A stretch of 32,333 bases of DNA, from the IMG/VR virus record IMGVR_UViG_3300001688_000031. One strand, given 5' to 3'. Numbering within the stretch: position 1 is the stretch's first letter; each line of letters opens with the position of its first letter. Below, piece by piece: positions 1 through 32,333 of the stretch. Source of the DNA: a virus. The position numbers and the translations under genes are program-made. Below the pieces are notes generated by a model, which did no database searches, was not told the DNA's origin, and worked only from the letters and a program-made list of their open reading frames with translations.

Positions 1-88
1 AGGCGTGCGAAGCCACCAATACCAGCCCTTTGAAGTCGTGAAATTCGTGTTCGTGTATTCCGAATTGCTCACGCATTGCGAAGTCGGA
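1..88. repeat. Terminal overlap, copy A: identical to 32246-32333. The contig is a closed circle or a circularly permuted unit of 32,245 bp.
   Basis: Base-by-base comparison of the two ends. A minus-strand reading frame runs through the junction without a stop. Confidence 0.95.
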
Positions 89-681
89 TACGCGACGCGG
101 GAAGCGTCGTTGCTGAACAGGGCAAGAAGCGAACCTTCGGCTATACTGTTTTCGTTTGCAAGTCCCACTTCGGTGGTGGACGCAAGGAACATTTTTGAAG
201 TCACGGTTTCGTAACTGCCGCCGTCGGTTACGGTGTTTTTTGCTACGGTCTGCGTAGTGTCCAAAAGCTCCGCAACGAACTTCGGTTCAAGCATAGCAAG
301 GAAGCCCGCCCACGCGTCGTATTCGTTGTAATTGTCCCATACGTTCGCGTTTGTAGGCGGCGCGTCTGCGCTGTGCTTTGCGCTGTACCATGCGCCCGCC
401 GCCGCGTTGCTGTTCAGCCATTGCAGAAGGTTAGAATGCAAATATCGGTTATTGCCGTATGATTTGCGATCGCTGTTGCTGTTGTTCGGCTCTTTTGCGT
501 CAAACGCCATAAGCTGAATAATTTTTTCAGTTATCAGCGTAACCGAATTTGCAGGATAGCCGCTGTTGTTCTTGTCCGCGATCTTGAAAACCAGCTTTGC
601 ACCGAAGCGGGATTGATACGCCGAAAGAACCGGAACTTCAATCTTCGCACCGACTGCCAATTTGCTTATTGATTGCGACAT
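1..681 (-). CDS. DGR target protein 1, 5' portion. The Met is at 681 and the ORF continues across the circular junction into 32245..31187, about 579 aa in total. The N-terminal domain is of the WWLR...GVRP type (C-type-lectin-like / DUF6273-like).
   Basis: Manual translation of the minus strand from ATG 681-679, with AGGAGG 7 nt upstream, gives MSQSISKLAVGAKIEVPVLSAYQSRFGAKLVFKIADKNNSGYPANSV...KMFLASTTEVGL...AYPTSQCVSNSEYTNTNF with no stop down to base 1. It is in frame with ORF 31187..32317, whose listed first M is really an internal GTG (Val). The ORF track misses it because it runs off the window edge. Confidence 0.85.
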   Translation of the reverse strand, partial: MSQSISKLAVGAKIEVPVLSAYQSRFGAKLVFKIADKNNSGYPANSVTLITEKIIQLMAFDAKEPNNSNSDRKSYGNNRYLHSNLLQWLNSNAAAGAWYSAKHSADAPPTNANVWDNYNEYDAWAGFLAMLEPKFVAELLDTTQTVAKNTVTDGGSYETVTSKMFLASTTEVGLANENSIAEGSLLALFSNDASRVAYPTSQCVSNSEYTNTNFTTSKGWYWWLRTP

Positions 682-1721
682 GGTTTTTCCTCCTTTGGTT
701 TGAATAAGCTGTTGTAATAATGATCCGTGCGCCGGATCAAGTGATAGCAATTACCCTTTGAAGCGTGTCCCCTCCAGCTTTGATAAGATTGTTCGATTGT
801 TTTATCGTCAATCCGTCCCGCCGCTCGAAGGCTGGCAAATTTCTTCAACTTCCGCTTCATGTTGTTTTTGCTCCGGCGGCGCACCTTGCGGATCACCGCG
901 CCGCTTTCCGTCAAATACGTATGAAAGCCCAAGAAATCAACGCCGTTCTTCAACGGGTAAATGTTGGTTTTCGCGTTCAGCGAAAGCCCGCGATCTTCGA
1001 CGAATGCTTCAATCTCTTTCAAACAATGCTGTAAATACTCTTTGTCTTTATGGATCAAGAAGAAGTCGTCCATATATCGCCCGTAAAATTTGATACCCAG
1101 CTTTTCTTTTACGAAGTGATCCAGCCCGTCAAGGTAGAGAAGGGCGAAAAGCTGTGAAGTTTGATTGCCGATCGGTATTCCGACGTTTCCTTCCGTGCTG
1201 TCGATGATAAGATCGACAAGCCACAAAACGTCCGGATCGGAAATCTTCTTGCGGATTAAGGTTTTCAAAACGTCATGCCGGATCGAATAGAAATACTTTG
1301 AAATATCGCATTTCAAAATCCAGCCGTCAACGCCGTTTTGTCGGTAAAACCTCCGCATGAATTCTTGAAGCCTGTCCAGCCCGTAGTGCGTGCCTTTGCC
1401 CACTTGCGAAGCGTAATTGTCCCGAATGAACGATCGCGTCAAAATCGGTTCAAGCACATTATCGCAAAGCGAATGTTGAACAACCTTGTCTTTGTAACCG
1501 TTCGACATAACGACGCGTTTCTTTGGTTCGTAAACCTCGAACGTGTTATACGGTGACATTGTATAGCGCTTCGTCTTTAACTGCGCGCTCAATAGGTTTA
1601 TTGCTTCAAGAAGGTTTACTTCAAACTTTGCCGACGCGCCTTTCCACCTTTTGCCCCTCCGCGCCTTTCGGTAGGCATAATATAGGCTTTCAAAGCTGTA
1701 TACCTTTTCAAACTCTGTCAT
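666..1721 (-). CDS. Diversity-generating retroelement reverse transcriptase (351 aa from ATG 1721; the track ORF extends to 1772).
   Basis: RT motifs include the DGR-typical IGNQTSQ and the catalytic YMDD. GAGGA RBS 9 nt upstream of ATG 1721. An adjacent TR and an Avd-like gene. The A-specific TR/VR mismatch pattern (see findings). Confidence 0.9.
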   Translation of the reverse strand: MTEFEKVYSFESLYYAYRKARRGKRWKGASAKFEVNLLEAINLLSAQLKTKRYTMSPYNTFEVYEPKKRVVMSNGYKDKVVQHSLCDNVLEPILTRSFIRDNYASQVGKGTHYGLDRLQEFMRRFYRQNGVDGWILKCDISKYFYSIRHDVLKTLIRKKISDPDVLWLVDLIIDSTEGNVGIPIGNQTSQLFALLYLDGLDHFVKEKLGIKFYGRYMDDFFLIHKDKEYLQHCLKEIEAFVEDRGLSLNAKTNIYPLKNGVDFLGFHTYLTESGAVIRKVRRRSKNNMKRKLKKFASLRAAGRIDDKTIEQSYQSWRGHASKGNCYHLIRRTDHYYNSLFKPKEEKPCRNQ

Positions 1722-1891
1722 AATAAAAATTTCCTCGCTGTGTGTAACCTTTGCCAGCCGCTTTCGCGTCATGCTCCGGTATCGGCGATCCTGTATTTGT
1801 CCCCGCCGTGGATAGCGGCGACGGGATACACCTTCCTTTGATGATGGTATTCTGCTTTCGGCTTGCGCCTACTCGTTCGCGTGTTCCATCG

Positions 1892-1993
1892 AAGCGGGCG
1901 AACGCCGTTGTTGCCGTTGTACGCGTTGTTGTTGTTCAGCGTGCCGTCCGTGTTGACATTGCGGACGTTGCGGGCGTTCGACGAATTAGGCGT
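1892..1993 (-). repeat. DGR template repeat (TR), non-coding, between avd and RT.
   Basis: 102 nt matching 32150-32251 at 97/102 positions and 20738-20813 at 71/76 positions. On the minus strand it reads ..AAC AAC AAC AAC GCG TAC AAC GGC AAC AAC.. (Asn-codon rich). No ORF covers it. The 119-nt spacer 1773-1891 to the RT start contains a small CGCCG/CGGCG hairpin at 1804-1820. Confidence 0.9.
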
Positions 1994-2018
1994 TGCAAGA
2001 TGTACCCCGAAACGATTT

Positions 2019-2423
2019 TCAAGCCCTCGTTTTATCCCGCTTCTTCCACGCGGTTATCATGTACTTTACTTCAAGCGCCATTTTGCTCCAATATTCGGAA
2101 CTGCTCATTGAAATAAAGCCCATTTCTTGCGAAAGCTCTATGAAAAATAGAAGCTCCTTGCAATAGGTCAGCGCCTTTGCTTGAAGCCTCTGTCGTTCTC
2201 TGTATTCCTGCGCGTCCCGAAGGTCTAATTCGTTCGCTTCGATCGCGCATTCATAAATATCAACCGCTTTATCCTGTATCCTGTTTACAAGGGTAAATCG
2301 GTACTTCTTCGGGAAGCGCTCTGTCGAATTCGTTATTGTGAAGGTGTGCTTTACAAGGTCTTTCGCCTTCACAATAACGTTGAATTCCGAAGGTTCTTTC
2401 CGTTCCCGTTCCGGTCTTTGCAT
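2019..2423 (-). CDS. avd: Accessory variability determinant (Avd-like four-helix-bundle protein), 134 aa.
   Basis: Size, basic and helical character. The FPKKYRFTLVNRIQDKAVDIYECAIEAN pattern is typical of the Avd / 23S-rRNA-IVS four-helix-bundle family. It sits immediately 5' of TR and RT. Confidence 0.75.
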   Translation of the reverse strand: MQRPERERKEPSEFNVIVKAKDLVKHTFTITNSTERFPKKYRFTLVNRIQDKAVDIYECAIEANELDLRDAQEYRERQRLQAKALTYCKELLFFIELSQEMGFISMSSSEYWSKMALEVKYMITAWKKRDKTRA

Positions 2424-8496: not shown

Positions 8497-8706
8497 TTAT
8501 AACCCCCCTAACACGTCGTCAATATCAACTTCTTTCGGATCGGGCTTGAAACGATCCGGATTGAATTCACGATGAATTTTGAAAAGCGTTAAAATTTTGT
8601 AAGGTGTCATGCGCCATACTTCGGCTTCGCTCCAGCGAAGAAGCGTTACGCCGATATAAAGAAGGCGGGCAAGGTCGATTATTCCTTGCCCGCCGTCATG
8701 TTTTTT
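8497..8706 (-). CDS. gpT-like extension of the tail assembly chaperone, reached by -1 frameshift from ORF 8679..9065.
   Basis: The -1 frame after the slippery site is open to TAA 8499-8497 and reads KKHDGGQGIIDLARLLYIGVTLLRWSEAEVWRMTPYKILTLFKIHREFNPDRFKPDPKEVDIDDVLGGL. It ends immediately before the tape measure ATG. Confidence 0.7.
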   Translation of the reverse strand, partial: KKHDGGQGIIDLARLLYIGVTLLRWSEAEVWRMTPYKILTLFKIHREFNPDRFKPDPKEVDIDDVLGGL

Positions 8707-9065
8707 TCGCCGTCCTCGCCTTCGTCGTCCTCTTCGTCACGTTCGGGCGGTTCGGGCGTGCCGTTGTTGCCCATCGAAAAAGCCTTGAAAATTGCGTTTT
8801 TGACTTCCGCAAAATTTCCGGTGTGAATAAGTCTGCCCACCTGTTTTTCGGTAAGCTCTTCTTCGCCTTCCTCTGCGCCTTCGTTCAGAAGGACGGTCAG
8901 AAGCCAGCGAATATTTTTAATGCTGTCCTTGCCGGAAAGCACTTTATCAAGGCGATCAAAGCCGCCGAATTTGTCCTGCATTTCGTCGATCGCGTTCAAA
9001 CTGAAAAGAAGGTGTCTTTCCTTGTCAAGCTCGATCGGGAAGCGTCCGTCTTTAATTGCGCTCAT
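8679..9065 (-). CDS. Tail assembly chaperone (gpG-like), 128 aa, acidic C-terminus.
   Basis: Lies between the major tail protein and the tape measure, with a slippery site near the 3' end. Confidence 0.75.
   Translation of the reverse strand: MSAIKDGRFPIELDKERHLLFSLNAIDEMQDKFGGFDRLDKVLSGKDSIKNIRWLLTVLLNEGAEEGEEELTEKQVGRLIHTGNFAEVKNAIFKAFSMGNNGTPEPPERDEEDDEGEDGEKNMTAGKE
8700..8706 (-). promoter_or_regulatory. Programmed -1 ribosomal frameshift slippery heptamer A AAA AAC.
   Basis: On the minus strand GAA AAA AAC lies in the zero frame of the chaperone, 7 codons before its stop. This is the canonical X XXY YYZ form. Confidence 0.7.
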
Positions 9066-9118
9066 AACAGAATAAGCGGGAAGCCGTTTCCGACTTCCCG
9101 CGTTCCTCCTTTCCGGTA

Positions 9119-9679
9119 TTAAGTTTCGGTGTTGTTAGGTTCGCGAACAGTAGTGAACCAAGCCGCCGCCACGGTGTTCGTAGGCTCTGCGACGTGTTCA
9201 GCCTTCCACAAGCCGTCGTCGCGCTTGATGAACTGTCCGACGATCTCCGGTGTAGTGAACTCGATACTATCGCCCTTTGTGGTGTAGTTTTCGTTCGGGA
9301 TCGCGAACTTCACCTTGTAAAGCCAAATATACTTGTACTTGCCGCCCGTTTTCTTCGCGCGGAAGCCGATTGCAGTATAAGGCGCTTCGTCGCTGTCAGA
9401 AGCGTAAAGCACGTTGTCCGCGTCCAGCTTCTGCCCAAGCAGGGCGGAAAGGTCAGCGGGAAGAAGATCATTGACGTTCAAAGTCAATTCGCCGGATACG
9501 AATTCTTTAACGATTTCGTCCGCTCCGTCGTCGGCATAAAGGATAGCTTCTGCGACTTCCACGGAAAGCTCCGCCGAAATAGCCTTCGCCATTCGCACGG
9601 GCGTTCCGTAGGTTTCTTTGCCGTTGTCGTCTACGGTAATGGGCGCGCGATAAAGATCGCGCAAACCGATTGTTGCCAT
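9119..9679 (-). CDS. Major tail protein (phi13-like family).
   Basis: MATIGLRDLYRAPI... N-terminus, 186 aa, position in the tail module. Confidence 0.8.
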   Translation of the reverse strand: MATIGLRDLYRAPITVDDNGKETYGTPVRMAKAISAELSVEVAEAILYADDGADEIVKEFVSGELTLNVNDLLPADLSALLGQKLDADNVLYASDSDEAPYTAIGFRAKKTGGKYKYIWLYKVKFAIPNENYTTKGDSIEFTTPEIVGQFIKRDDGLWKAEHVAEPTNTVAAAWFTTVREPNNTET

Positions 9680-9682
9680 GTG

Positions 9683-10012
9683 TCATACCTCCATATACTT
9701 GATTTGTACGGGGATATGATAATACCCCGTGTCTTGCTCGAAGATTTCCGCTTCAATCTCGAACCCGTAAAACCCCGCCGCTTTGACGTTGGCTTTCAAG
9801 GATTGAAGAAGCGTGAAATAATTTTTCTTTGAATACAAGTGTACTTGATACGTGTATTCCTGCGCCCCCTCTTCATCGTCTGAAAAGAAGGTGTCGCGCC
9901 CCGCCACAAGCTGGTACGTGATAAAACAAGCCGCCTTCCCGCCGTATTTCAGACGTTCGACGGGAACGCCCAGCTTTTCAAGCGTAGTTTTCAATAAGCT
10001 GTCAACGTTCAT
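9683..10012 (-). CDS. Tail completion / terminator-like protein (109 aa from ATG 10012).
   Basis: GGGAGG RBS upstream of ATG 10012. Position between the gp10-like protein and the major tail protein. Confidence 0.55.
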   Translation of the reverse strand: MNVDSLLKTTLEKLGVPVERLKYGGKAACFITYQLVAGRDTFFSDDEEGAQEYTYQVHLYSKKNYFTLLQSLKANVKAAGFYGFEIEAEIFEQDTGYYHIPVQIKYMEV

Positions 10013-10415
10013 TTTGTTTTTCCTCCCATACGCGGCGCATTTCCGCCGTTGCTTCCTCCGCCGCGTTAGCATTCGCCCTTGTGAACCACGGGCGCGCGGG
10101 CATATTTGAACGCCCGTAATTCAGCACGAAGCCTTTTTCGGCATTGCGTACCCCGTGCCGATCCTTTCCGGTCGGCGCGATCTCCACAAATTTGCCGCCG
10201 TCGCGCTCCTTCACGGCTGATACTTTGATCGAAGCCGTAAGCGCGCCCGTTGCTCTGCCTGTGCTGTTCAATTTCTTTGTTTCCGTCTGAAACGCGCGTT
10301 TGATAACCTCGCCGCCAGCTTTCAGCATTTCCGGCACGGCTTCTTCAACGATCGCGTCCTGTCGAAGCATTGCTTCCATAACGTCGTCAAGCCCTGTAAC
10401 GGTGAATTTAGCCAT
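10002..10415 (-). CDS. HK97 gp10 family tail-head joining protein.
   Basis: MAKFTVTGLDDVMEAM... and ...NYGRSNMPARPWF pattern. Synteny. Confidence 0.7.
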   Translation of the reverse strand: MAKFTVTGLDDVMEAMLRQDAIVEEAVPEMLKAGGEVIKRAFQTETKKLNSTGRATGALTASIKVSAVKERDGGKFVEIAPTGKDRHGVRNAEKGFVLNYGRSNMPARPWFTRANANAAEEATAEMRRVWEEKQNER

Positions 10416-10755
10416 CTTCGCCGCCCCCTTCCGCTTCCGGAAGGTTTACAAGCGTCAATTCCGTAAATTGTCCGTTGCCGTGCAAATACGTTCGCAATAC
10501 GCGATAGCGCGTCCCGCTCCCCACGGGATATTCAACGGTTTGTTCTCCGGCGTACTCCATTGTGTGAACGTCGAATTTCATTTCCGTTGTGTAGCCCGCT
10601 TGTGCCGCCTTGTAGAACTCCGAATAACCCACGGATTTCTTGTCAGCGAATACCGTTGTCGATGTTTCGTCATGGGGAAGGGGGAAGCCGTTTTCGTCCG
10701 TGCGCGGCGTTTTATCGGTCTGCGCGATCAGTTTGATTTGATCGTTCCAGCCCAT
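10408..10755 (-). CDS. Head closure protein (head-tail adaptor).
   Basis: 115 aa. Synteny and the typical SEFYKAAQAG...Y.V pattern. Confidence 0.65.
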   Translation of the reverse strand: MGWNDQIKLIAQTDKTPRTDENGFPLPHDETSTTVFADKKSVGYSEFYKAAQAGYTTEMKFDVHTMEYAGEQTVEYPVGSGTRYRVLRTYLHGNGQFTELTLVNLPEAEGGGEDG

Positions 10756-11046
10756 TTATTCGCCCTCGCTTTCCGTATGATCTCCGGACAAGGACAACGC
10801 GCATTTCAAATAATCATACGCTTTGCGGTATCGGTCGCCCTCTCCGCCGAAATTATCTTCCGATTTCGCGTAAAGAATGATCGCGCGGTCTAAAAGGGGA
10901 TCGCCCGTTGTGTCGGACGATCCCACTTCCGGAACATTGATACCGACAAGGCGAAGATCAGCGCAAGCGGAATTGATGTAATCCGTCACTTCGTCGTTAA
11001 AAACGGCGGCGGTTTTTCGCAACGCCAGCTTTACCTTGTCAAGCAT
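10756..11046 (-). CDS. gp6-like head-tail connector protein.
   Basis: 96 aa directly after the capsid gene. Pattern of the Phage_connect_1 type. Confidence 0.65.
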   Translation of the reverse strand: MLDKVKLALRKTAAVFNDEVTDYINSACADLRLVGINVPEVGSSDTTGDPLLDRAIILYAKSEDNFGGEGDRYRKAYDYLKCALSLSGDHTESEGE

Positions 11047-11060
11047 TGTTCAACCCTCCG

Positions 11061-12215
11061 TTACGCGGAAGCCTTAACCAGCTTGACGATAGCTTCGCCG
11101 ATAGCGGGCTGGCAATCGAAGATAGCGATACCGCTATACTTGTAACTGTTGGTGTTGATGTCGTATGCGTTCTTCACGCCGATATTTTCGGCAAGGTTTG
11201 CACAAACCTTCTTGAAATCACCCAAGAAGGCTTCGTGATCCTTGACGTAATCGGAAAGCAGAACGGGATAGCCGTACACGAAGTACGCGTTGCCCTGCAC
11301 GGTGACAATGTGGTTCTTGCTGTTGTCCTGCAAAGGCATAAAGTCGGTGAACAAGGTTTTCTTGCTCATGGCGAACTTTGCGTTGCGGTCGTAGCCCGCG
11401 TTCAGAAGTCCGATCAGCGCCTGCACGTTTGCGGCGGTAAGGGAAGCAGAAGCGCCCACGGATACGCTATTAGTAGCGCCCCAAGTGTTCGCCTTGTCAA
11501 TGCCCTTCGGCTGGTTACTGCCTGTGCCGTTGATAAGCAGATCTTCGATCTTGCGGGCGATAGCTTCCGCAAGCATATTGACGATCCAGCTTTCAAATGC
11601 CGCAATGCTCATAGTCATAACGGTATCGGAAATCTGAACCAGCTTGATGATCTCATATCCGGTAAGGGTAACAGTAGTGAAGGTGTCGGCGGCGGCGGTA
11701 ATAGCGGCGTTCTCGGCGTGAATAGCCGCGTCGTTATTAGTGCCTTCAACGGCAAACTTCACAGCGCCCTTGACGTGCAGAAGGGTAACTTCATTCAGCA
11801 TGGGCGCAAGAGTTTTGATCTTGCTGATGATCTCGTTTGCGGTCTGTGTGGGGATAACCTCTGCGCCCGCTCCGGTCACGTTGCTATACGCGCGCTTTTC
11901 AGCGTCGGAAAGGGGAAGGCGGCGAAGCTGTTTCAGCCATGCGGAACGGTATTCGGGGGAAGCAACGGGATCGTCGTTTTCCTCGGTCGCGGTCTGCTGG
12001 GTAAAGGAACGGGAAACAACGCCCGCGCCCTGTGCAATGGTGTTCAGAATGCCGCTACGCTTTTCGGCGGCGGCAATAAGTCCGGCGCGCTCTTCGGTAA
12101 GCTGGCTGGTTTCCTGCTCCAGCGCGTCGATCTCGGCGGCGGTCATTTCTGCGCCGCGCTGTTCGATTTCCTGCTTGATAGCCGCAAGACGGGCTTCAAT
12201 CTCTTTAATTCTCAT
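11061..12215 (-). CDS. Major capsid protein, HK97 family.
   Basis: 384 aa with an N-terminal coiled delta-like region (MRIKEIEARLAAIKQEIEQRG...). Follows the prohead protease. Confidence 0.9.
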   Translation of the reverse strand: MRIKEIEARLAAIKQEIEQRGAEMTAAEIDALEQETSQLTEERAGLIAAAEKRSGILNTIAQGAGVVSRSFTQQTATEENDDPVASPEYRSAWLKQLRRLPLSDAEKRAYSNVTGAGAEVIPTQTANEIISKIKTLAPMLNEVTLLHVKGAVKFAVEGTNNDAAIHAENAAITAAADTFTTVTLTGYEIIKLVQISDTVMTMSIAAFESWIVNMLAEAIARKIEDLLINGTGSNQPKGIDKANTWGATNSVSVGASASLTAANVQALIGLLNAGYDRNAKFAMSKKTLFTDFMPLQDNSKNHIVTVQGNAYFVYGYPVLLSDYVKDHEAFLGDFKKVCANLAENIGVKNAYDINTNSYKYSGIAIFDCQPAIGEAIVKLVKASA

Positions 12216-12219
12216 TGTG

Positions 12220-12840
12220 TTAAACCTCCATCATAAGTTTGATTTTTAGAATTTGCTTCCGGCGCTCCAGCCGCTCCTGCTGTTCCCTCTCGATCACTCC
12301 GTCGAAATAGGATCGTGCCGAAATATCGGTATCGCCGTTCGCCGGATAGCTAACCGCCGAAACGTCGTAAACCTTCTTGATCTTCAAGATCGTTCTTGTG
12401 TGCGTATCCTTGTTATACGCTTCTTCCGCTACGGTGAACGCCCAAGACATTTTGTAAATCAAGCCTTCGTCGATATTCGCATAAAGGCGCTTCGCTTCGT
12501 CTGTAAGGCTCAAATTCGCCGCAACAAACAAGCCGCTTTCCTGCGGCTCTAAAAGCAGGGAAGGCGGCTTGTTTTTCGCCATTTTGTTTCGGGCGAATAC
12601 CATTCCGGAATGATCGAACTGCATAATTACGTCGGACATATCCGCGCCGACAAGGGCGTTGCGGTCGATAACTTCGTAATATTTCACGCCGTCATACTCG
12701 AACATAACATACGGTTTATCGAAAGTCGTTGCGAAGCCTTCAACGTAATAATCCGTGTCAAACCTCTTTTCCGCCGCTTCCGTCGGGATCATCAGCGGCT
12801 GGAACATTTGTCGGTACTCCCGTTCCTTCACTATTGGCAT
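12220..12840 (-). CDS. Prohead serine protease, HK97 family.
   Basis: 206 aa, AAAGGAGG RBS, ...DVSAVSYPANGDT motif. Lies between portal and capsid. Confidence 0.85.
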   Translation of the reverse strand: MPIVKEREYRQMFQPLMIPTEAAEKRFDTDYYVEGFATTFDKPYVMFEYDGVKYYEVIDRNALVGADMSDVIMQFDHSGMVFARNKMAKNKPPSLLLEPQESGLFVAANLSLTDEAKRLYANIDEGLIYKMSWAFTVAEEAYNKDTHTRTILKIKKVYDVSAVSYPANGDTDISARSYFDGVIEREQQERLERRKQILKIKLMMEV

Positions 12841-20579: not shown

Positions 20580-21223
20580 TCGTCAGCCCTCCCGAATACT
20601 TCTTCCGCGTCAATGTCCCATGCCGCCGCAATATGCTTCATCATATCGACGGCTTTTTCTCTCTGATCCTCGGGCGCGTCCTGCTTGTCGTAGCCGCCGG
20701 AAAGATAAGATTTCAAGATTTCGGATTTCAGATTGCAAAGCGGGCGAACGCCGTCGCTGCCGTTGTACGCGTCGTTGCTGTTCAGCGTGCCATCCGTGTT
20801 GACATTGCGGACGAAAGAATTGATCGGGCTGTCAGCGGTAGCCGTCCACCACCAATCATTCGGAAGCGCGGGGATATGTTCGCGGAAAAGTCGGTATTCC
20901 TCGCAAGTGATAAGCCCGACGCGGACGCGATCGCCGCCGTAGGTTTTCAAACCGTCGTCCGCCGTCAAGTCGATGTTGAAATACTCGAACATTTCTTCCG
21001 GCGCTCCTGCCGCAATCAGACGGCGCAAGAATTCGCCGTTCAGATATGCGCGAATGTCAGACGCGGCAAAATCGTTTCGGTTCTTCGCGTCGAACGCTCT
21101 TTCCTCGACGCATTCGGAAGCAATGCACTTCACCCAATCTTCGCCCGTCTGAATAACCGTGAAGGCGATCCCGCCGATCGTGAATTCTGTTTTCGGCTCG
21201 AAGCCGTGTTTGTTTGCTGTCAT
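20576..21223 (-). CDS. DGR target protein 2 (215 aa): a small WWW...GVRP (C-type-lectin-like / DUF6273-like) protein carrying VR2.
   Basis: GAAGGGAG RBS. Homologous to the N-terminal domain of target 1 (...DWWWTATADSPINSFVRNVNTDGTLNSNDAYNGSDGVRPLCNLKSEIL...). Contains the TR-matching segment. Confidence 0.8.
   Translation of the reverse strand: MTANKHGFEPKTEFTIGGIAFTVIQTGEDWVKCIASECVEERAFDAKNRNDFAASDIRAYLNGEFLRRLIAAGAPEEMFEYFNIDLTADDGLKTYGGDRVRVGLITCEEYRLFREHIPALPNDWWWTATADSPINSFVRNVNTDGTLNSNDAYNGSDGVRPLCNLKSEILKSYLSGGYDKQDAPEDQREKAVDMMKHIAAAWDIDAEEVFGRADE
20738..20815 (-). repeat. DGR variable repeat 2 (VR2), partial-length match to TR.
   Basis: Aligns to TR 1892-1969. Differences at TR plus-strand T 1909, 1911, 1927 and 1932 (all t to c) and at 1968-1969. 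There is one non-A difference (1946 g vs 20792 a), which is synonymous (GAC to GAT). Homology stops at about 20813-20815. Confidence 0.75.
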
Positions 21224-26169: not shown

Positions 26170-27207
26170 TCAAGCGGCGGCGGCAAGGCATTTTTCAAAG
26201 CGCATTTCGGCGGTTTCAAAGCCTAATATCTCGCGGGGATAGTTATTGATCCACGTTTCGACGCGCTTAATATATGCGGCGGTTACTTTCCGGAAGTCTG
26301 TTCCTTTCGGCAAGAACCGCCGTATCATTTTGTTTATATTCTCGTTTGTCCCTCTTTCGTATGCGCTGTACGGGTGGCAATAATAAACCGTCGTGCGCTT
26401 CTTGTTCCCGTATACCGATTTTTCGATCGCTTCACAATTCAAGAATTCCGATCCGTTGTCAACGGTAATTGATTTGAATATCTTTGCGAACTTCCGTCCG
26501 TATTTCCGTTCCAGCTTGTTCAACGCCGCCACGACGCTTGCGGAAGTGTGATCCGGCATTTTGATAATGATTTCGCGGCGCGTCAACCGCTCCGAAAGAA
26601 CAAGCAATGTTTCCTTCGTTTTCTTCTTTCCTTCGACGCAATCCATTTCCCAATGCCCGAAGGTTTCGCGATCGTTGATTTCCTGCGGGCGGCTCTCTAT
26701 GCTTTCGCCGACGGACGCGCGGGCGGATTTCCTCTTCACGCCGTTATACTTGCGCTTCCGCTTTCCGCCTTGCGGAAGGTTCTTCCGCTCCAGCCGCAAA
26801 AATATTCCTTTGTCGATGTAGTTATAAATCGTCTTTTCGCTGATCTCCGTTTTGAAGGAAAGCCCCAGCGTCTTGATCTCTCCGACAACGGCGGCGGGCG
26901 AATATCCTTCGTCAACAATCTTCCGTTCGATGTACTCCGCCAATTCGCGATCGTCGCCGATCTTCAATTCTCCGCCTTTTGCCTTCAAGTTTGCTTCATA
27001 GCGCTGTTGTGCTATGTCCGGCGAATAGCGTTCTTCGGTCGTCAAGTCGGAATTCAAATGCGTATACGTGCCGCGCTTCAATTCTCTGTAAATCGTGGTA
27101 TTGTGAACGTGAAGGCGCGCCGCGATCTGCAACGGCTTCAAACCTTCCTTCAATCCCTTTTCGATTTTAAGACGATCGTTCCACGTCAAGTGTTTGTGCA
27201 TTGTCAT
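26170..27207 (-). CDS. IS30-family DDE transposase (345 aa from ATG 27207).
   Basis: N-terminal HTH, GHWEMD, DNGSEF and YCHPYSAYERGTNENINKMIRRFLPKG motifs typical of IS30-family enzymes. GGAGGA RBS. I could not find flanking inverted repeats by eye. Confidence 0.85.
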   Translation of the reverse strand: MTMHKHLTWNDRLKIEKGLKEGLKPLQIAARLHVHNTTIYRELKRGTYTHLNSDLTTEERYSPDIAQQRYEANLKAKGGELKIGDDRELAEYIERKIVDEGYSPAAVVGEIKTLGLSFKTEISEKTIYNYIDKGIFLRLERKNLPQGGKRKRKYNGVKRKSARASVGESIESRPQEINDRETFGHWEMDCVEGKKKTKETLLVLSERLTRREIIIKMPDHTSASVVAALNKLERKYGRKFAKIFKSITVDNGSEFLNCEAIEKSVYGNKKRTTVYYCHPYSAYERGTNENINKMIRRFLPKGTDFRKVTAAYIKRVETWINNYPREILGFETAEMRFEKCLAAAA

Positions 27208-27220
27208 TTCCTCCCCGATA

Positions 27221-27252
27221 TAAAAACAAAAGGGCGGCATATCCTGCCGCCC
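27221..27252 (-). terminator. Rho-independent terminator after the RHH-like gene.
   Basis: Stem gggcggca / tgccgccc (27232-27239 / 27245-27252), followed on the minus strand by TTTTGTTTTT. Confidence 0.7.
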
Positions 27253-27259
27253 ACGCCCG

Positions 27260-27442
27260 TTACTGCTTGCGTGCCGCTTCACAAAAGGAAGCAATAAATC
27301 GCTTGATCTCTGTTGTCGGTGTCGTTCCTTTGATTTCGCAAGCCTTCTTGAATTCCTCTAACACTTCCGGTCGAAGATCGAGCGGGAAGCGGGTGTAATT
27401 TTTCCGGATATGCTTTTGCTGTGCCGTGTAGTCCTTGTTCAT
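27260..27442 (-). CDS. Small ribbon-helix-helix-like DNA-binding protein (60 aa).
   Basis: TRFPLDLRPEVLEEFKKACEIKGTTPTTEIKRFI fits a beta-strand plus two helices RHH layout. It has its own promoter and terminator. Confidence 0.5.
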   Translation of the reverse strand: MNKDYTAQQKHIRKNYTRFPLDLRPEVLEEFKKACEIKGTTPTTEIKRFIASFCEAARKQ

Positions 27443-30647: not shown

Positions 30648-31190
30648 TTATTCCTCCCCGCTGTTTACTTTCTCCCATTGCCACATACCCGCCGTGTCGG
30701 GCGGATATACGCAATTAGGCATATCAGCCGTTGCAAGGTAAACTTCGCCTTTGTAGCTGTAATATTTACCCGCTTCAACGTTGACGACAATTCCCGCCGT
30801 TTCCGGATACGGGATCGGATCGTCGATCGTGCCGCTTGCGCTGATCTCGATATGGCGATAATATGCGAAGGTCGTTTCGACGGGATACGCGGCAACGTTT
30901 GAAGTGTGCGGCGCGATAACTTCGTAATAATAATCGCCGTATTTGAAGATTTCGCCGATCGTGTTGTATGCGTGCTTGTCCTTGAATTCGTCGTATGCGA
31001 TAAGCTCCGCCGATTGAAGGATCATTTCGTCAGTAATGACATTCGTATTCGCCGCGCGATCCTGCACGATCTGCGCTTTGAAGGAAAGGGAAAGCAAGGC
31101 GGCGTTGTTTGCTTCCGCCACCTTTACTGCTTCAACCTCTTTTTGGAGCGCGGCGTTACCGCCGCCGTTTTTGTTATGCGTTACACTCAT
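30648..31190 (-). CDS. Hypothetical phage protein (180 aa), possibly with a carbohydrate-binding C-terminus.
   Basis: The ORF is in operon with overlapping stop/start. The C-terminal aromatic pattern YSYKGEVYLA...PPDTAGMWQWEKV is reminiscent of CBM5/12. The functional call is weak. Confidence 0.5.
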   Translation of the reverse strand: MSVTHNKNGGGNAALQKEVEAVKVAEANNAALLSLSFKAQIVQDRAANTNVITDEMILQSAELIAYDEFKDKHAYNTIGEIFKYGDYYYEVIAPHTSNVAAYPVETTFAYYRHIEISASGTIDDPIPYPETAGIVVNVEAGKYYSYKGEVYLATADMPNCVYPPDTAGMWQWEKVNSGEE

Positions 31191-32333
31191 TCAAAGTTAC
31201 CCCCGATCCCCGATACCCAGCAATTTGTCAGCGCCGTTCCGCGCTTTACTGTTACACGGATATTCAAGCCGTATTGTGCCGCCGTGTTCATCGTATTTTC
31301 AAATACGTGGGCGTGTCCGGCAATAACGGCGTTCGTGCAATCTTCCCAAACGGGGGAAGTGTCAAACGGATTGTTCGTTGCTTCAACCTTGAATTCGCCG
31401 CCTGCCGGAATATCGCGCGTTACTGTGATATTACAGCGTGTCGGCTGGCTCTCTGCTTCCAGCGGTTCGGTCAGCGTAATAACGAAGCCGTCAATCGCCT
31501 TCGTGAAGGTCAATGTACGGACGGCGCTATTTCCTGCGCTGTCGGTCGCCGTGATCGTGATTGTGTGGATCGCGTTTGAAAGTGCTGTGAAGCTGTCGTC
31601 GATAACGGAAAGCGTCTGCGTTTCGCCCAGCTTGACGTTATTCTTCGTCGCATGAACTGCGCCGTCGATCTTTTCAACGACATTCACAATGTCCGCGTCT
31701 GGATCGGTCACGCTGTATTCGTAGGTGAAGCCCTCGCGCTTCACGCCAAGATCAGCGTTTGCGCCGCTGATAACGGGCGGCTGATTGTGAATTACGGCAA
31801 TATCGCCGCTTGTGGTATACGCGGAATAATTGCCGTAGCTGTCTTTTGCGCGGACGCGGTATTTCAGCGTGTTCCACGCGGTCGAAACTGCTTCCGTGAA
31901 GGTTCTTGCGGCGGAACTCTGAACTTCTGTCCACGCTCCGCTGTTGTAGGAACGTTCAAAGCAGTATGTCAGCGCGTCGCCGTCCGGATCGGTCGCCGCC
32001 GCGCAAGATACTTCGATATTCTGTCCGCTGTATGTCTGTGCGGGCGCTGTGATACCGGAAGGCGCGGAAGGCGCGCTGTTGTAGATAATTTCGTAATTAC
32101 CATCTGCGTTTGTGGTATCAGATACCAAGATTGAAGATGATAGATTACAAAGCGGGCGAACGCCGTAGTTGCCGTTGTACGCGCTGTTGTAGTTCAGCGC
32201 GCCGTCCGTGTTGACATTGCGGACGATGCGGGCGTTCGACGAATTAGGCGTGCGAAGCCACCAATACCAGCCCTTTGAAGTCGTGAAATTCGTGTTCGTG
32301 TATTCCGAATTGCTCACGCATTGCGAAGTCGGA
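31187..32333 (-). CDS. DGR target protein 1, 3' portion (continues from 681..1 across the junction): VR1 followed by ~320 aa of Ig/FN3-like beta-rich domains.
   Basis: In frame with 1..681. ...WYWWLRTPNSSNARIVRNVNTDGALNYNSAYNGNYGVRPLCNL, then SAPSAPSGITAP...TDPDGDALTY...VTDPDADIV... repeats typical of Ig/FN3-like modules. Confidence 0.85.
   Translation of the reverse strand, partial: PTSQCVSNSEYTNTNFTTSKGWYWWLRTPNSSNARIVRNVNTDGALNYNSAYNGNYGVRPLCNLSSSILVSDTTNADGNYEIIYNSAPSAPSGITAPAQTYSGQNIEVSCAAATDPDGDALTYCFERSYNSGAWTEVQSSAARTFTEAVSTAWNTLKYRVRAKDSYGNYSAYTTSGDIAVIHNQPPVISGANADLGVKREGFTYEYSVTDPDADIVNVVEKIDGAVHATKNNVKLGETQTLSVIDDSFTALSNAIHTITITATDSAGNSAVRTLTFTKAIDGFVITLTEPLEAESQPTRCNITVTRDIPAGGEFKVEATNNPFDTSPVWEDCTNAVIAGHAHVFENTMNTAAQYGLNIRVTVKRGTALTNCWVSGIGGNFE
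32113..32127. promoter_or_regulatory. Palindrome tggtatc-a-gatacca located 22 nt 3' of VR1 (candidate DGR homing hairpin/cruciform).
   Basis: Read directly. It sits where BPP-1-type DGRs carry a hairpin downstream of the IMH. Confidence 0.4.
32150..32251 (-). repeat. DGR variable repeat 1 (VR1).
   Basis: 97/102 identity to TR. All 5 differences (32167, 32184, 32191, 32200, 32226) are at TR adenines on the coding strand. They recode Asn/Thr codons to Ile, Ala, Tyr, Ser and Tyr. Confidence 0.9.
32246..32333. repeat. Terminal overlap, copy B (identical to 1-88).
   Basis: See copy A. Confidence 0.95.

Follow-up and report, generated by a model that had tools for sequence, protein, structure and literature searches.

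The stretch of DNA analysed here, IMG/VR virus record IMGVR_UViG_3300001688_000031 (from here on the window, meaning all of its 32,333 nucleotides), carries close to its left end a gene for the accessory protein Avd, a non-coding template repeat (TR), a spacer (Sp) and a gene for a reverse transcriptase (RT), and the last of these overlaps a gene that continues at the other end of the window (Table 1). The avd gene is separated from the TR by a 25-nt gap and the TR from the RT start by 170 nt. This avd-TR-Sp-RT cassette is almost certainly a genuine diversity-generating retroelement (DGR) of a circular 32.2-kb gut phage, with two target genes, one carrying the variable repeat (VR) VR1 and the other VR2. 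The locus has the RT motifs together with YxDD, a TR adjoining the RT gene, TR/VR differences at adenines and VRs that lie inside coding targets, and Avd, the accessory protein of architecture class B, was recognised by its PHROG family (E 1.6e-29). The sequence-only reading of the same DNA had placed a complete DGR at positions 666-2423; the DGR itself stands, but it is not confined to this interval, as the first target is a 579-aa gene that wraps around the contig ends and the second target lies at a distance.

Table 1. Positions of the DGR components and other features in the window
Feature	Positions	Strand	Basis or remark
TR, 102 nt, 29 adenines	1892..1993	minus	non-coding, between avd and RT
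VR1, 102 nt, aa 226-259 of target 1	32150..32251	minus	97/102 identical to TR
DGR RT, 351 aa	666..1721	minus	Pfam RVT_1 3e-16; PHROG 1423 4.9e-135
avd, 134-aa basic accessory protein	2019..2423	minus	PHROG phrog_3206 'Avd protein of DGR' 1.6e-29
Target 1 ('tentaclin'), 5' part, codons 1-227	1..681	minus	Pfam DUF6273 1.2e-34 over aa 45-263
Target 1, 3' part, codons 228-579	31187..32245	minus	VR1-encoded end of DUF6273, then beta-sandwich domains like those of immunoglobulins (Ig) and fibronectin type III (FN3)
Target 2, 215 aa	20576..21223	minus	Pfam DUF6273 5.9e-12, only the VR end (aa 123-167); PHROG 9958 5e-43
VR2, 76 nt, corresponding to TR positions 27-102	20738..20813	minus	differs from TR by 4 A>G and a silent C>T (GAC>GAT)
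Sp RNA region, TR to RT	1722..1891	minus	RNAalifold and pair counts, 15-18 relatives
Conserved non-coding element GGGGTACATCTT, between avd stop and TR	1997..2008	minus	predicted 5' strand of the 12-bp TR-closing duplex
3' strand of the closing duplex, AAGGTGTATCCC	1834..1823	minus	RNAalifold prediction
30-nt element directly 3' of VR1, TGTAATCTATCATCTTCAATCTTGGTATCT	32120..32149	minus	absent from TR; candidate sequence like the initiation of mutagenic homing (IMH) site
30-nt element directly 3' of VR2, TGCAATCTGAAATCCGAAATCTTGAAATCT	20708..20737	minus	counterpart of the post-VR1 element
Terminal direct repeat, 88 bp	32246..32333		assembly overlap, circular or circularly permuted genome
IS30-like DDE transposase	26170-27294	minus	PHROG 4646 7.8e-137; Pfam HTH_38 and rve

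Ungapped comparison of the TR with VR1 gave 97 identities in 102 positions, the count of the sequence-only reading, and its further observation that all five mismatches fall on adenines of the minus-strand TR and none on the 73 other bases was reproduced exactly. On the plus strand the mismatches lie at 1909, 1926, 1933, 1942 and 1968, and they comprise three A>T and two A>G changes. With 29 adenines in the 102 nt (A29 C37 G23 T13), the probability of all five mismatches falling on A is 0.0014 (hypergeometric). The adenines had also been described as lying mostly within AAC codons, which agrees with the 12 AAY codons counted here (10 AAC and 2 AAT), and all 29 are at codon position 1 or 2 of the target frame. 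The TR is designed such that adenine changes can reach zero stop codons and some 1.3e17 different VR1 peptides are possible. The 3' end of the TR, free of adenines, is GGCGTTCGCCCGCTT, and it is common to the TR, VR1 and VR2. Once the contig is circularised, VR1 lies about 2 kb downstream of the TR.

The same signature was seen among relatives. Scanning IMG/VR with the RT yielded 80 loci with RT identities of 82-99%, and in these the TR of each locus was located and the VRs were searched for. In the 65 TR/VR1 pairs obtained from related contigs, 873 of the 891 mismatches were on TR adenines, with a per-site difference of 47% at A versus 0.2-0.9% at C, G and T. Mismatches at TR adenines made up 14/14 in VR1 and 13/13 in VR2 of phage nd12, a close relative described by Baykov et al. 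2023 (Int J Mol Sci 24:17324, PMC10743442), and 16/16 in a fecal contig. Two loci (L004 and L005) have exactly the TR of the window and yet other VR1 sequences, altered at A sites only, and relatives with an overall identity of 96-97% have 11-18 mismatches inside the 102-nt VR1. In 58 tentaclin homologues with at least 90% identity, the Shannon entropy was 1.17 bits at aa 226-259 versus 0.10 elsewhere, and its peaks coincide with the AAY codons. One locus had an unusual template: the TR of L068 (IMGVR_UViG_3300045988_019455, L068:9735-9836) carries about 11 A>N changes in its 5' two-thirds when compared to the sister TRs of L064, L066 and L082. VR1 of L068 has the same substitutions as its TR, and apart from one G>A nearly all its additional changes are at adenines still present in that TR. 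Judging from this pattern, the L068 template seems to have been mutagenised itself, or converted from a VR, and then still used as a template.

The 351-aa RT with IGNQTSQ and YMDD described earlier is present, and its full motifs are GIPIGNQTSQ and YMDD. In DGR RTs the signature [I/V/L]GxxxSQ replaces QGxxxSP (PMC7826257). The best match among solved structures was 8ub7_A (E 8e-45, while the highest-ranking RT of a group II intron reached 1.8e-19), the chain sequence of which equals the translation of brt from Bordetella phage BPP-1 by sequence comparison; the identity to this protein, Brt, is 33% over 335 aa, which is nearly the full length. Two residues of Brt, R74 and I181, have been shown to promote adenine mutagenesis (PMC7826257), and their equivalents in the RT are R69 and I184. 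The start was placed at ATG 1721, which has GAGGA 11 nt upstream and gives 351 aa, the annotated length of the nd12 orthologue, while an alternative in-frame ATG at 1772 would give 368 aa. A tblastn search of phage records with the RT found 157 records, of which 30, taken from across the whole ranking, were listed; nearly all of these are annotated RT genes, and among the 30 are the published DGR RTs of BPP-1 (brt), crAss-like phages and Faecalibacterium phages. Two results had been named in advance as speaking against a DGR, namely an RT that falls outside the DGR clade, together with VR variation beyond TR adenines. The RT instead groups with DGR RTs by sequence search, and the variation among relatives is at TR adenines. 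The placement among DGR RTs is based on sequence search and motif.

Against NCBIfam the top model by E-value was that of the group II intron RT/maturase (TIGR04416, E 1e-34), followed by the weaker Drt3a and retron St85 models, and the repeat region is common to both target proteins. Taken together, these could mean that the RT belongs to some other retroelement (a group II intron maturase, a retron or an Abi/DRT system) and that the 102-nt repeat arose independently of it, by duplication or by gene conversion between paralogous domains. This we consider extremely improbable. All of the NCBIfam scores are far below the curated cutoffs (120 bits against 300, 71 against 200, and 40 against 235 for the retron), an Rfam scan of the whole window returned zero families at the gathering threshold, thus no group II intron or retron non-coding RNA family held in Rfam, and Brt is clearly ahead of all other solved relatives. 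The motif of the RT is IGxxxSQ and not QGxxxSP. Ordinary duplication or conversion can account neither for the 873 of 891 differences on TR adenines nor for a non-coding master copy that keeps its adenines while the coding copies vary. An identity of the RT as a group II intron, retron or DRT enzyme was therefore rejected on the missed curated cutoffs and the absence of an associated RNA in the Rfam scan.

The 134-aa basic protein reported upstream of the RT gene was confirmed as Avd-like, with an isoelectric point of 9.2. BLASTP against the Avd of BPP-1 and phmmer against the PDB gave no meaningful match, and the assignment as Avd rests on profile hidden Markov models.

The RNA between avd and the RT gene has a predicted structure that is shared by relatives. 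In the Sp region, which is strongly conserved, a helix directly 3' of the TR/VR homology boundary pairs GATGG (1890..1886) with CCATC (1847..1843), and this GRUGG/CCAYC helix alternates between G:C and A:U in about half of the sequences. Over 15-18 relatives, 99.2% of the cells in the Sp structure were paired and four pairs were changed on both sides; the covariation score was reached by none of 500 shuffles, and slid controls were 27-48% paired. RNAalifold of the RNA covering the distal part of avd, the TR and Sp in 18 relatives predicted in addition a 12-bp duplex of GGGGUACAUCUU (2008..1997) with AAGGUGUAUCCC (1834..1823), followed by a stem-loop (about 1824..1801) with two covarying pairs and then by an A-rich tail. 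The 5' strand of this duplex, the element before the TR, is nearly invariant over the related loci, even where the 3' end of avd differs. The duplex may loop the TR out. A template:primer duplex and a 'cPRT Stop' have been seen by cryo-electron microscopy in BPP-1 (bioRxiv 10.1101/2023.10.23.563531), and the topology predicted here for the DGR RNA matches the two of them. A U>C variant in the Sp of L014 and L021 suits an alternative local helix better than the closing duplex.

The target gene next to the RT starts at ATG 681 and overlaps the RT stop (666-668) by 16 nt, coordinates that hold as given in the sequence-only reading. Its open reading frame (ORF) exits the left end of the window, resumes at 32245 and ends at 31187, and since the contig is circular, the ORF from 681 and the ORF bearing VR1 are one gene of 579 aa. 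The product aligns without gaps with target 1 of nd12 (both 579 aa, 83% identity), a protein that was named 'tentaclin' and has an N-terminal C-lec/DUF6273 domain and three Ig-like domains, while target 2 of nd12 is a lone C-lec domain (PMC10743442). The arrangement of the tentaclin family, an N-terminal DUF6273 with the VR and then Ig-like domains, was found in target 1 at the sequence level, and the AlphaFold2 (AF2) model has pLDDT values of 70-90 at about aa 290-480, for which the Foldseek matches were tandem FN3/Ig arrays. With E <= 1e-10, tentaclin matched more than 3,000 clusters, some with tens of thousands of member sequences. Target 2 has 78% identity to the C-terminal 212 aa of its nd12 counterpart, and VR2 within it is 18.8 kb from the rest of the DGR on the map and 13.4 kb around the circle. 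When the whole window was scanned A-tolerantly with the TR and with its 40-mers, VR1 and VR2 were the sole VRs found. In one relative, L070 (IMGVR_UViG_3300008058_000057), the VR after the RT gene, about 2 kb downstream of the TR, is followed by a target-2-like C-terminus (..MKKRAEAVDMMKHIA) and not by tentaclin, and thus the target content beside the RT varies within the lineage.

Where on the virion the target proteins are located, and which ligands they bind, can be suggested from family matches and gene position. Tentaclin matches a PHROG family named 'Hoc-like head decoration' (10993, E 1.8e-112), its C-terminal part is a tandem Ig/FN3 array, and the binding of carbohydrates, of the host or of microbes, is discussed by Baykov et al. 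and in a 2026 Mushuviridae preprint. Its DUF6273 profile (aa 48-272; window 1-540 and 32110-32245) also matches the solved structure 9qa6_A (PDB; E 4.5e-14), in a region that is the N-terminal domain of a gut-bacterial IgA protease, a domain to which the ThomasA paper assigns no function. It is therefore quite possible, if somewhat short of probable, that the DGR is real and tentaclin is a Hoc-like capsid decoration for adherence to mucus or host glycans and not a tail receptor-binding protein, in which case only target 2 would take part in host recognition. The PHROG name is, however, an annotation and not a tested function, and the gene is at the end of the tail module (tape measure protein, Dit, minor tail protein, then the DGR), which is the usual place of receptor-binding proteins.

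Directly 3' of both VRs lies a 30-nt element, TTTGYAATCTnnAATCTnnnATCTTGGTATC, which has three AATCT units and is conserved in 65 relatives. It is the sole sequence without TR homology that is common to the two otherwise dissimilar target genes, and it is a candidate target-recognition (IMH-like) sequence. In L027 and L037, VR1 bears the VR2-type version of the 30-nt flank, which suggests recombination between VR1 and VR2 (the element was also noted in L001). An imperfect inverted repeat at 32098-32142 was rejected as a cruciform, with a z-score of -1.5 and no conservation in nd12 or at VR2. It is a tentative and rather doubtful idea that this lineage marks its retrohoming targets in a way unlike that of BPP-1, using an element embedded in the coding sequence, with AATCT three times at a spacing of about 8 nt, and not an IMH with a cruciform, and that the TR is looped out by the invariant 12-bp duplex, with occasional mis-targeting or recombination explaining the TR of L068 and the flanks of L027 and L037. 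If true, this would provide a natural system to dissect target recognition in DGRs with internal VRs and multiple targets.

Several results count against a functional DGR of this design. Avd falls below the thresholds of two family models, NCBIfam DivGenRetAVD (E 5.6e-11, 42.7 bits with a cutoff of 80) and Pfam bAvd (E 2.6e-6, under the gathering score), and it has no BLASTP-level similarity to the Avd of BPP-1. The closing duplex showed zero compensatory changes and two one-sided breaks among the 18 relatives, and it should thus be taken as a predicted structure. No conserved hairpin or cruciform was found 3' of VR1 and VR2 (z-scores -1.5 to +2.4). A C-type lectin fold was not confirmed for the DUF6273 regions of either target, in which AF2 gave pLDDT values below 50 from shallow, near-identical alignments. 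In addition, the VR1 of the window is unusually close to its TR, changed at 5 of the 29 A sites when 10-16 is typical, the fewest among the 66 TR/VR1 pairs. VR2, in turn, has four of its five mismatches at TR adenines and a single non-A difference, the synonymous GAC>GAT; the stretch around it may not have been recently rewritten because it carries this change. The GAT codon equals the TR allele of other clades (e.g. L057 and L064, ..CCGATGGC..), and from this likeness the part of VR2 around GAT may be older than the present TR of the window or may come from recombination.

The low number of changes in VR1 and the GAT codon of VR2 are also what would be expected if the cassette, intact as it looks, were by now an inactive relic with VR differences inherited from an ancestor. 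This we regard as improbable. All the ORFs are intact, with the catalytic and signature motifs of the RT kept, the TR of the window retains all its adenines, unlike that of L068, and the spacer RNA is conserved, while a VR close to its TR is equally expected just after a homing event with few mutations. Moreover, the closest relatives, 96-97% identical, bear unrelated VR1 sequences on the same TR, so homing took place within that divergence time. By these comparisons the lineage is one in which the DGR has been active recently, and mutagenic retrohoming probably also occurs at present in this particular genome.

A DGR with two targets would be expected to function here as follows. The avd-TR-Sp-RT region would be transcribed, and the RT together with Avd would reverse-transcribe the 102-nt TR, with priming probably at a site inside the structured spacer RNA that directly follows the TR. 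The TR adenines would be copied unfaithfully and the other bases faithfully, after which the cDNA would replace the homologous VR. One recipient would be VR1, which codes for the final 34 residues of tentaclin's N-terminal DUF6273 domain, in the gene that follows and overlaps the RT gene, and the other would be VR2 in the 215-aa DUF6273-related protein. The likely purpose would be to re-tune the ligand specificity of binding proteins exposed on the virion, for host receptors or gut glycans.

The system is already published for a close relative, nd12, and the window is a further case from a distinct branch. Baykov et al. described nd12 and nd12-like phages with this cassette, one TR, two targets and A-restricted variation. 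The order avd-TR-RT-target1 with a remote target2 and one TR for both VRs is the same, as are the TR length of 102 nt with 28-29 adenines and the positions of VR1 near the 5' third of target1 and of VR2 near the 3' end of target2. The TR of nd12 differs at 9 of 102 positions, and its target2 has an 85-aa N-terminal extension (DUF3310-like according to Baykov et al.) that target 2 of the window is without. Nd12 is a small myovirus with a sheath gene according to its authors, whereas no sheath gene was among the 30 ORFs scanned in the window, and they reported no prophage relatives, whereas prophages were found here in Oscillospiraceae isolates. The same layout has been described for FP_Toutatis and 173 Toutatisvirus phages (Egorov et al., bioRxiv 10.1101/2024.10.15.618418), and the Faecalibacterium prophages Lelie and CP11 have a large and a small DUF6273 target (PMC11792537). 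In these phages, too, the TR is flanked by avd and RT. A 'Hoc-like' gene with DUF6273 and Ig-like domains just past the RT carries the first VR, a small DUF6273 gene at a distance of about 17.5 kb carries the second, and both VRs are at the C-terminal end of DUF6273. However, Toutatisvirus is another phage lineage with zero megablast similarity to the window, the closest Faecalibacterium phage RT among the 30 tblastn records listed (FP_Brigit) is 46.5% identical, and the Toutatisvirus hotspot is flanked by an integrase where the phage of the window has an IS30-like DDE transposase instead. The sequence-only reading was right about the order avd-TR-RT-target and less so in presenting it as unusual, since the arrangement is documented in nd12, in FP_Toutatis and as the avd-TR-RT core class B1 (Wu et al. 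2018, PMC5758913), in a catalogue that covers variable target positions, internal VRs and non-adjacent prophage targets.

The prototype for comparison is the DGR of BPP-1 (mtd-avd-TR-brt), with which the window shares IGxxxSQ, YMDD, the equivalents of R74 and I181, an avd directly upstream of the TR, adenine-specific mutagenesis and a GC-rich, A-free 3' end of the repeat common to TR and VR. As in BPP-1 (bioRxiv 10.1101/2023.10.23.563531), the predicted pairing partners of the spacer RNA are the 3' flank of the TR and a segment upstream of it. In contrast to BPP-1, the adjacent target follows the RT gene instead of preceding avd, a second target is present, VR1 is internal and not C-terminal, and the target domain is DUF6273 in place of the Mtd type. 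Also unlike BPP-1, the window showed neither a hairpin nor a cruciform 3' of its VRs, and the two Avds cannot be aligned by BLASTP.

The analysis leaves the understanding of DGRs unchanged, and it shows that such an element can be recognised from raw sequence alone. It adds the prophages of Oscillospiraceae isolates, a predicted fold of the DGR RNA with some covariation, the 30-nt element after the VRs and an adenine-mutated TR in one relative, and the window supplies the complete circular genome of a distinct nd12-like branch. Phages like nd12, and tentaclins, are abundant in human gut metagenomes, and with prophages in cultured Oscillospiraceae the system can be approached by experiment.

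As for the genome as a whole, positions 1-88 are exactly identical to 32246-32333 by sequence comparison, and the contig is thus a circle of 32,245 bp. It is best explained as the complete genome, assembled as a circle of 32.2 kb, of a temperate siphovirus-like phage that infects gut Oscillospiraceae. All ORFs with protein-family matches are on the minus strand, and the PHROG annotation gives a complete siphovirus-type structural module as well as lysis and replication modules. The order by PHROG is TerS, TerL, portal, protease and major head protein; then neck and adaptor proteins, tail terminator, major tail protein, tape measure, Dit and minor tail protein; then a phrog_1220 structural protein and an unknown gene before Avd, RT and tentaclin; and, after tentaclin, an unknown gene, a holin-like gene and an endolysin. 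The 30 ORFs in which no tail sheath gene was found include the whole head-to-tail block between TerS and endolysin, and the tail/neck module at 8600-12300 (major tail protein, chaperone-like protein, tape measure, Dit) is siphovirus-like. Neither a tyrosine nor a serine integrase turned up among the proteins scanned, and the place where an integrase might be expected is occupied by the IS30-like DDE transposase, which may be the integration enzyme or else an inserted insertion sequence.

Megablast with a 25-kb query (window 1-25000) gave phage nd12 (OR777946) at 84.5% nucleotide identity over 88% of the query. A scan of GTDB species representatives detected nd12-like prophage segments, of about 81-84% nucleotide identity, in isolate genomes, and from their presence in Oscillospiraceae isolates the host of the phage is most likely a member of the Oscillospiraceae. 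The prophage-bearing isolates, in which the segments are on large contigs, are Hominicoprocola fusiformis CLA-AA-H269, Oscillospiraceae bacterium CM18GR_63 and Neglectibacter caecimuris M00184 (loci of the set L086, L088, L090 and L094), and the same set also includes a genome labelled Oscillospiraceae bacterium isolate B35_35_AM_H.

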